Below are positions 23,566 to 24,017 of a stretch of 31,573 nt of DNA, one piece after another (the stretch's first letter is position 1; every line of letters starts with the position of its first letter). This DNA is from a virus. Lineage: Duplodnaviria > Heunggongvirae > Uroviricota > Caudoviricetes. The DNA lies in IMG/VR virus record IMGVR_UViG_2551306526_000005; one strand, given 5' to 3'. Made by a program: the position numbers and the translations under genes. The notes under the pieces are model-generated. The model saw only the letters and a list, made by a program, of their open reading frames with translations. It had not been told where the DNA came from and did not search any database.

Positions 23566-24017
23566 TAGTTATATGGCTCCCGTGCTGCTTCGTAAACGTT
23601 TAATAATCAAACAATTGACACTGATCATAAAACCAGTTAGAGGATTTGACTCTAGCTTGGATATATGATGATGCCACCCCCTTTATATTGTTGTCGGTAA
23701 CTCACAGACATTGAACTCATGCTGGTGAGTGAAAGGCTACATAAACGCCCAACATTTAAACTGCCCTCAGCAGTGTTCGCGGAGCAATATACAGGCTTCG
23801 TATTCAATCCTTGCCCTACGAGAAACCCTAGCCGTTGCCTCGTTTTCAAGTGTCAGGAAGTTCTTTGTCAGACCTCATACAGTCTTGGGCTGGGTGAGGT
23901 GCATGGGGGAAGTTGAAGCCTTAACTGTTGAGGTAAATCGAACTATAAGTGTGCAATTTTTCAAGCTCGGCGCTATTTTAGTATTGAAAACAATTAGTAC
24001 GCCCCCAAGGACAACTC

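Follow-up and report, generated by a model that had tools for sequence, protein, structure and literature searches.

A 452-base spacer in the Z hotspot of a P2-like prophage as a probable mosaic scar of gene fragments from satellite-like islands

The DNA analysed here (the window, 31,573 nucleotides of IMG/VR virus record IMGVR_UViG_2551306526_000005) carries a P2-like prophage in which a 2.2-kb AT-rich cargo block with three ORFs lies between the position of gene G and gene FI. The block and the genes on its two sides are arranged as follows.

20014-22260: tail-fibre gene H, on one side of the cargo block
22264-22791: 175-aa ORF at the position of tail-fibre assembly gene G (assigned by position only; its R18C counterpart is annotated as a hypothetical protein)
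23016-23294, minus strand: 92-aa ORF
23347-23565, minus strand: DUF3606 ORF (Pfam E = 4e-18)
24018-24710, plus strand: 230-aa ORF with an N-terminal hydrophobic segment (phrog_11802, function unknown)
24971 onward: sheath gene FI, on the other side of the cargo block

The DUF3606 ORF on the minus strand and the 230-aa ORF on the plus strand are separated by a spacer of 452 bases (23566-24017) that holds no intact gene. With the spurious 65-aa ORFs set aside, it is the largest ORF-free gap of the window, the next largest being 348, 250, and 235 nt. Its three short ORFs had no match in Pfam or PADLOC (nor did the 230-aa protein), and they are interrupted or have lost their stop codon in 5 to 17 of 23 close relatives; the 92-aa ORF is intact in all 23 and the DUF3606 ORF in 22. 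The original prediction, made from the sequence of the window, of a non-coding spacer of about 450 bp, with no ORF that has a credible ribosome-binding site, is thereby borne out, and its statement that the spacer is less AT-rich than the cargo genes holds weakly (43.6% GC, compared with 36.9% for the 92-aa gene, 42.9% for DUF3606, and 40.1% for the 230-aa gene). The spacer is present nearly in full length, at ≥94% identity, in 99 of 5,426 complete E. coli genomes.

The location of the cargo block corresponds to the P2 "Z" hotspot, since it lies between G and FI, is flanked by inverted repeats, and is exchanged between P2-like phages. The repeats form a 33-nt imperfect pair at the edges of the block (22844-22876 and 24755-24787) and may represent a hotspot recombination site. 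The stretch from ~22848 to 24770 is shared as a unit with diverged P2-like contigs that have non-matching flanks and with the chromosome of Pantoea leporis (L008), where it adjoins a split tyrosine recombinase of ~200 aa. The locus was reportedly first described in a Mol Biol Evol 2004 paper. R18C (MN016939) and the Z-region of P2-EC53 (AJ512682, "proviral Z-region, ORF1") have the 2.2-kb block, 98% identical, between G and FI, and E. coli APEC O78 carries it at 100% identity. Both phage records mark the inverted repeats on its flanks, leave the corresponding gap unannotated, and note neither pseudogene fragments nor a DUF3606 gene. In the gap, AJ512682 places two signals only, a -10 (window 23684-23689) and, at the position equivalent to 24007-24011, a ribosome-binding site; its 230-aa gene is described as a "putative lysogenic conversion protein."

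Comparison with related loci divided the spacer into the following elements.

23566 to ~23638: promoter-like block, conserved and travelling with the DUF3606/92-aa module
23568-23596, minus strand: candidate leftward promoter, with -35 TTTACG (23596-23591), a 17-nt spacer, and -10 TATAAC (23573-23568)
23591-23637: conserved 47-nt block that includes the imperfect palindrome ACTGAT-N6-ACCAGT (23620-23637)
23652-23792, minus strand: 3' remnant of an endonuclease VII (endoVII) gene (PF02945 family, ~142 aa), approximately codons 98 to 142 plus the TAG stop (23652-23654)
23789-23790: junction of a 312-nt (104-codon) deletion, with TAC microhomology
23791-23877, minus strand: traces of two island backbone genes, encoding proteins of 99 and 115 aa
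23880-23970, plus strand: borrowed element of 91 nt, the left edge of a variable cargo slot, with a small hairpin at 23880-23892
23971-24017, plus strand: leader specific to the 230-aa gene; its ribosome-binding site, AAGGA, is at 24007-24011

The intact ancestral gene order was found in an island of E. coli NCTC11023 (L059; NZ_LS483297, 932857-945416), which encodes, in this order, an integrase, the 92-aa protein, DUF3606, endoVII, the 99-aa protein, a 141-aa protein, an HNH endonuclease, and a capsid protein, with further genes past the capsid gene up to a DEAD/DEAH helicase. Window positions 22862 to 23788 are colinear with this island (86% identity over 930 nt). In addition, the window has the degenerate last ~60 codons of a tyrosine integrase at 22801-22980 on the plus strand, with in-frame stops (tblastn, 4e-17), directly after the 175-aa ORF, which shows an island of this kind to be the source of the entire left half of the cargo block. 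Islands of the NCTC11023 type, including L038-L043 and L053, share with the window the order and orientation of the genes and also the promoter block between DUF3606 and endoVII. However, the islands have intact genes for endoVII, the 99-aa and 141-aa proteins, HNH, capsid, and scaffold, whereas the window, in its phage tail-gene hotspot, has only fragments. Among the products of islands L038-L043 are a major head protein (phrog_267, 5e-68) and a scaffold-like one (phrog_1018), and varied cargo, such as an Eco47II restriction-modification pair, is found between their endoVII and integrase genes; defence-type cargo in this place is a feature of the island family as a whole (L038-L043, L053, and L059). 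As a group, these are integrase-bearing islands with head, scaffold-like, HNH, endoVII-domain, and DEAD/DEAH helicase genes, and no other recognisable virion genes were seen in the stretches available. The analysis establishes an island origin for the whole cargo block.

At the left end of the spacer, the annotated start of the DUF3606 gene is probably misplaced. The DUF3606 homologue in RefSeq is 59 aa long, which corresponds to a start at window position 23526, behind a GAGGA ribosome-binding site. The gene therefore probably starts at 23526 and not at 23565, and the real gap would be ~490 nt. The candidate leftward promoter listed above has a predicted start at about 23561, followed by a leader of ~35 nt to the GAGGA and then by the DUF3606 ATG at 23526, an arrangement that fits the 59-aa annotation. 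Both hexamers, at a spacing of 17 to 18 nt, are kept in five independent contexts (the window, L008, L053, L059, and L006). In L006, the spacing is 18 nt, the intervening sequence is different, DUF3606 is absent, and the promoter-like block is located directly upstream of the 92-aa homologue. No promoter-like site was returned by a consensus promoter scan of 22700-25000 (9 of 12 matches), which TTTACG-17-TATAAC fails, its -10 hexamer ending in C and not in T; the same scans of L004 and L053 gave matches elsewhere only, and neither promoter-like nor terminator-like sites were found by scanning inside 23566-24017. Distant homologues of the 92-aa gene (54% to 57% identity, in high-GC contigs) have unrelated upstream DNA, so no test of the promoter block is possible there. 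As far as can be judged from sequence, a sigma-70-type leftward promoter for DUF3606 is probably present at the left end of the spacer.

The 47-nt block (23591-23637) is conserved at 89% identity in E. coli islands and is also present in L008, L053, and L059; in the last two, it lies upstream of DUF3606 and the 92-aa gene. The homology to L006 and L053 stops just past the palindrome at 23620-23637. In L006 and L053 this palindrome is perfect (ACTGGT-N6-ACCAGT), and in the window, L059, and L008 one arm is degraded without compensation, which makes a role as an operator doubtful. Read on the minus strand, the same sequence could just as well be a weak terminator that belonged to the former structural operon. 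Thus, where divergent promoters with operator sites had been proposed for the spacer, the left promoter is supported by its conservation in five contexts but no right promoter could be pinned down, and the conserved palindrome near the left promoter is a doubtful operator, being degraded in three of the five. The "DUF3606 operon" of the original prediction needs correction: a strong intrinsic terminator on the minus strand (23341-23322) lies between DUF3606 and the 92-aa gene, so the two may not form one transcription unit. The 92-aa gene itself is ended by a G10-containing bidirectional hairpin at 22983-23017 (AATTAAAGGGGGGGGGG TAC CCACCCCCTTTAATT), which faces the G side and whose G run differs in length from one relative to another. 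A 12-nt repeat, CCACCCCCTTTA (at 23003 and 23674), was considered as a target-site duplication of the DUF3606/92-aa module and was rejected because the copy at 23674 lies inside the endoVII remnant and descends from codons for KGGG.

The largest piece of the spacer is the endoVII remnant. In a tblastn search with the endoVII protein of L038, window positions 23792 to 23679 matched residues 98 to 135 (E = 5e-8), and the alignment of the family reaches the family stop codon in the window. The family comprises 59 members from Enterobacteriaceae, most of them with PF02945 and ~142 aa long, with E values down to 1e-56. The remnant is colinear with the annotated endoVII gene of NCTC11023 (86% nucleotide identity), and the slightly higher GC content of the spacer fits this origin, the endoVII gene of L059 having 54.5% GC. 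In L008 and in two metagenomic P2-like contigs (L028 and L029), the cargo block is ~94% identical to that of the window and contains 312 extra nucleotides, which complete the minus-strand ORF of the ~142-aa endoVII-domain family. The 312-nt deletion took endoVII codons 1 to ~97 together with the 3' end of the upstream 99-aa gene. Among the matches listed, all E. coli P2-type copies align as two separate segments, with 53% of the longer query covered, indicating that the deletion is present in every one of these copies.

The deleted residues 1 to ~97 include the DHCH core, the His/Cys catalytic region of the endonuclease. In addition, the three codon positions of the remnant are equally variable (0.17, 0.17, and 0.20), and a frameshifting 4-nt indel follows position 23663 in six relatives. 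Even the longer form of the gene, in L008, is already frameshifted near its start. The loss of the core, the equal variation of the codon positions, and the frameshifting indel indicate that the stretch 23652-23792, although homologous to PF02945-family endonuclease VII genes, is by its sequence a pseudogene fragment and not a functional member of the family. The -10 signal annotated in AJ512682 (23684-23689) falls inside this remnant, in former codons for QYKG, and no acceptable -35 was seen by eye.

Next to the endoVII remnant are traces of two other genes of the island backbone. Of the 99-aa gene, the window keeps only five codons (EYEAC), at 23791-23805, the last that are left of it; in intact islands, this gene and the start of the endoVII gene overlap. 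The sequence 23800-23877 on the minus strand corresponds to 12 upstream bases and the first ~22 codons of the 115-aa gene (phrog_21723), with the start codon lost, and is 83% identical to islands L040 and L043 over 78 nt. With the 115-aa protein as the query, tblastn gave 2.4e-4 in the window and 4e-6 in L008. In L008, the 115-aa fragment is joined to the last 25 codons of the 99-aa gene (tblastn, 5e-13, with an in-frame stop). As both the longer and the shorter forms of the block have the 115-aa/99-aa fusion, the fusion predates the spread of the block.

The right end of the spacer has another source. The 91-nt element at 23880-23970 matches the distal ~90 nt of an intergenic region of 460 to 500 nt that lies upstream of the gene for a serine recombinase. 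In about 60 E. coli genomes it is found, at ~80% identity, in islands that adjoin tRNA-Leu or tRNA-Thr, and it also occurs in Kosakonia and in contigs encoding a protein named for Klebsiella michiganensis (the loci with the element include L003 to L005, L007, L032, and L058). Its conservation at ~80% across genera could be a sign that it has a function in its home islands, and not simply of shared descent. That the element is a remnant of the 99-aa gene was considered and rejected, as tblastn gave no match past 23805 and as, in its home islands, the element precedes the recombinase gene instead of following it. The leader that follows (23971-24017) is conserved only where a homologue of the 230-aa gene comes next (L003, L004, L007, and L008) and is missing upstream of the TIR cargo in L005. 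No convincing rightward promoter for the 230-aa gene was located; the best candidate by eye is TTAACT-17-TATAAG (23921-23949), inside the element.

In sequence variation, the spacer differs from its neighbours. Among 21 distinct copies of the block, mostly 94% to 100% identical, 16.8% of the spacer columns are variable. For the three flanking genes, the figure is 10.4% at third codon positions (Fisher p = 0.009) and 7.0% over the full set of coding columns (p = 2e-8). The middle of the spacer thus appears to be without constraint, although a short constrained site could escape notice in a sample of such low diversity.

In summary, ~230 nt in the middle of the spacer derive from three decayed island genes, and another 91 nt were borrowed from the flank of an island slot. 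With a probability that we put at about 85%, the spacer is a mosaic pseudogene scar of island gene pieces, with promoters probably left at its ends, and not a regulatory or RNA locus; it is a real feature, of a known and ordinary kind, and its length is accounted for by gene decay, not by regulation. The cargo block of the Z hotspot was assembled from pieces of integrase-bearing, capsid- and scaffold-encoding, satellite-like islands of Enterobacteriaceae. Its left half (~22801-23879) is colinear with the integrase-proximal end of such an island, with the integrase 3' end, the 92-aa gene, DUF3606, endoVII, the 99-aa gene, and the backbone, from which successive deletions would have taken out backbone genes. 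An older deletion would have joined the start of the 115-aa gene to the end of the 99-aa gene, and a later one, of 312 nt, would have cost the endoVII gene its first two-thirds. From 23880 to 24770, the right half consists of the 230-aa cargo gene and ~140 nt of its upstream flank, taken from a second cargo slot of related islands. In the present arrangement, DUF3606 would be transcribed from the left promoter (23596-23568, minus strand), as would the 92-aa gene by read-through of the terminator at 23341-23322; a candidate promoter somewhere in ~23920-24000 would drive the 230-aa gene, and the ~230 nt in the middle would be neutral debris.

A different reading of the right end takes the element at 23880-23970 for an outward promoter or an active recombination site, marking a slot for cargo exchange, which would explain why the 230-aa gene could be captured and swapped. 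In the E. coli, Klebsiella, and Kosakonia islands, homology breaks within ~6 nt past GCAATTTTTCAAG, and at least six different, unrelated cargoes follow this sequence in either orientation. They include a homologue of the 230-aa protein, a TIR protein, a 271-aa protein, a small secreted protein, a 304-aa protein, and a DUF3800 set, the last in the opposite orientation (slot regions: L004, 4093-6196; L005, 4093-6185 and 5648-5754; also L003, L007, L032, L058, and L060 to L063). The slot adjoins the gene of the serine recombinase, of which WP_001258715 is an example; this gene is 97% to 99% identical between other islands that have varied cargo next to it. The right boundary is sharp as well (AGCCCCGTTGGTGGTAAG...), and its first ~110 nt recur as a second copy (81% identical) between two cargo genes of L005. 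However, the window has no serine recombinase nearby and no right-boundary sequence, no shared repeat was detected between the left and right boundaries of the slot, and sharp boundaries would also be expected from homologous recombination in conserved flanks. The presence of cargo in both orientations weakens the case for the element as a general outward promoter. We therefore consider this reading unlikely.

Slightly less likely still is the related proposal that the element and its hairpin are a relic recombination site of a serine-recombinase cargo slot in satellite-like islands. If this were true, the P2 Z hotspot and the islands would trade defence-type cargo by a shared site-specific mechanism, an integron-like serine-recombinase platform, instead of by ordinary homologous or illegitimate recombination. 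The analogy to integrons, which applies to the home context of the element only, lies in a recombinase gene divergent from a conserved flank that is followed by unrelated cargo. Integrons, however, use a tyrosine recombinase, whereas that of the home islands is a serine recombinase; no repeated cassette-end sites were found in the islands apart from the one diverged extra copy; the cargo of their slot can have either orientation; and of the platform, nothing but the flank is present in the window.

The original prediction also raised the possibility of a structured non-coding RNA, such as an sRNA, an RNA antitoxin, or a retron-like msr/msd. Such an RNA, with an antitoxin taken to be of type III, would act with the flanking cargo genes. 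The long gap between divergent genes in a hotspot that is known to host retrons and defence genes (PMC9122126) is compatible with such an RNA, as are the small hairpin at 23880-23892, which is kept in relatives, and the sub-region 23870-23975, which folds slightly better than its shuffled versions (z = -1.2 on the plus strand and -2.0 on the minus strand). However, Rfam gave no family at its gathering score for the window, taken in full, or for five related loci, and permissive Rfam scans of 22700-25000 and 23500-24080 gave, within the spacer, only eukaryotic chance matches with E > 1. The spacer as a whole is no more stable than shuffled sequences on either strand (z = -0.52 on the plus strand and +0.27 on the minus strand). 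For seven homologues of 23866-23972, a small and closely related sample that makes for weak negative evidence, RNAalifold found no compensatory pair and a positive covariation term on both strands. No tandem repeats of the kind of a ToxI-like array were found in the spacer, and no reverse transcriptase is encoded in 22700-25000. As the spacer is accounted for base by base by remnants of protein genes and evolves faster than the synonymous sites of its neighbours, an RNA gene at this place is very improbable.

Still less credible, and close to dismissible, is an expressed functional mini-protein from the minus-strand 65-aa ORF (23652-23849), a fusion product of the in-frame deletion of 104 codons that keeps the endonuclease C-terminal tail and is intact in 15 of 23 relatives, since this ORF is broken by stops in the other 8, varies equally at all codon positions, starts with TTG with no ribosome-binding site seen upstream by eye, lacks the His/Cys catalytic region, and comes from a gene whose longer form was frameshifted already.

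The reading as a mosaic scar removes a false lead, since the longest "non-coding" stretch of the window needs no new RNA or regulatory mechanism, and the ORFs of the spacer should not be annotated as genes. Two local annotations are corrected as well: the DUF3606 start is probably at 23526, and the -10 signal of AJ512682 lies in former coding sequence. The scar records the passage of cargo into a P2-like hotspot from a satellite-like island that encodes a capsid. The 92-aa gene, DUF3606, and the gene of the 230-aa membrane protein make up this cargo, which arrived with pieces of the integrase, endonuclease, and structural-operon genes of the island. It is thus a concrete example of cargo flow between islands and phages, as suggested by the systems that the P2 and P4 hotspots share (PMC9122126). 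Other pseudogene scars in prophage "moron" and hotspot regions likewise show homology to genes, an absence of purifying selection, and deletions at short repeats. Nothing essential sets the present scar apart from them; its one unusual trait is the combination of four fragments from two slots of one island family within 450 nt.

Outside the cargo block, two other AT-rich (33% to 36% GC) cargo-like patches were observed in the window, at 6974-8640 on the plus strand and 17228-18399 on the minus strand, and their ORFs of 257, 260, 261, and 128 aa had no match in Pfam or PADLOC. Among the homologues of the 230-aa gene (24018-24710), two IMG/VR copies (L026 and L027) have premature stops, and the Pantoea-type copies have another C-terminal end, which results from a 2-nt insertion after position 24695.
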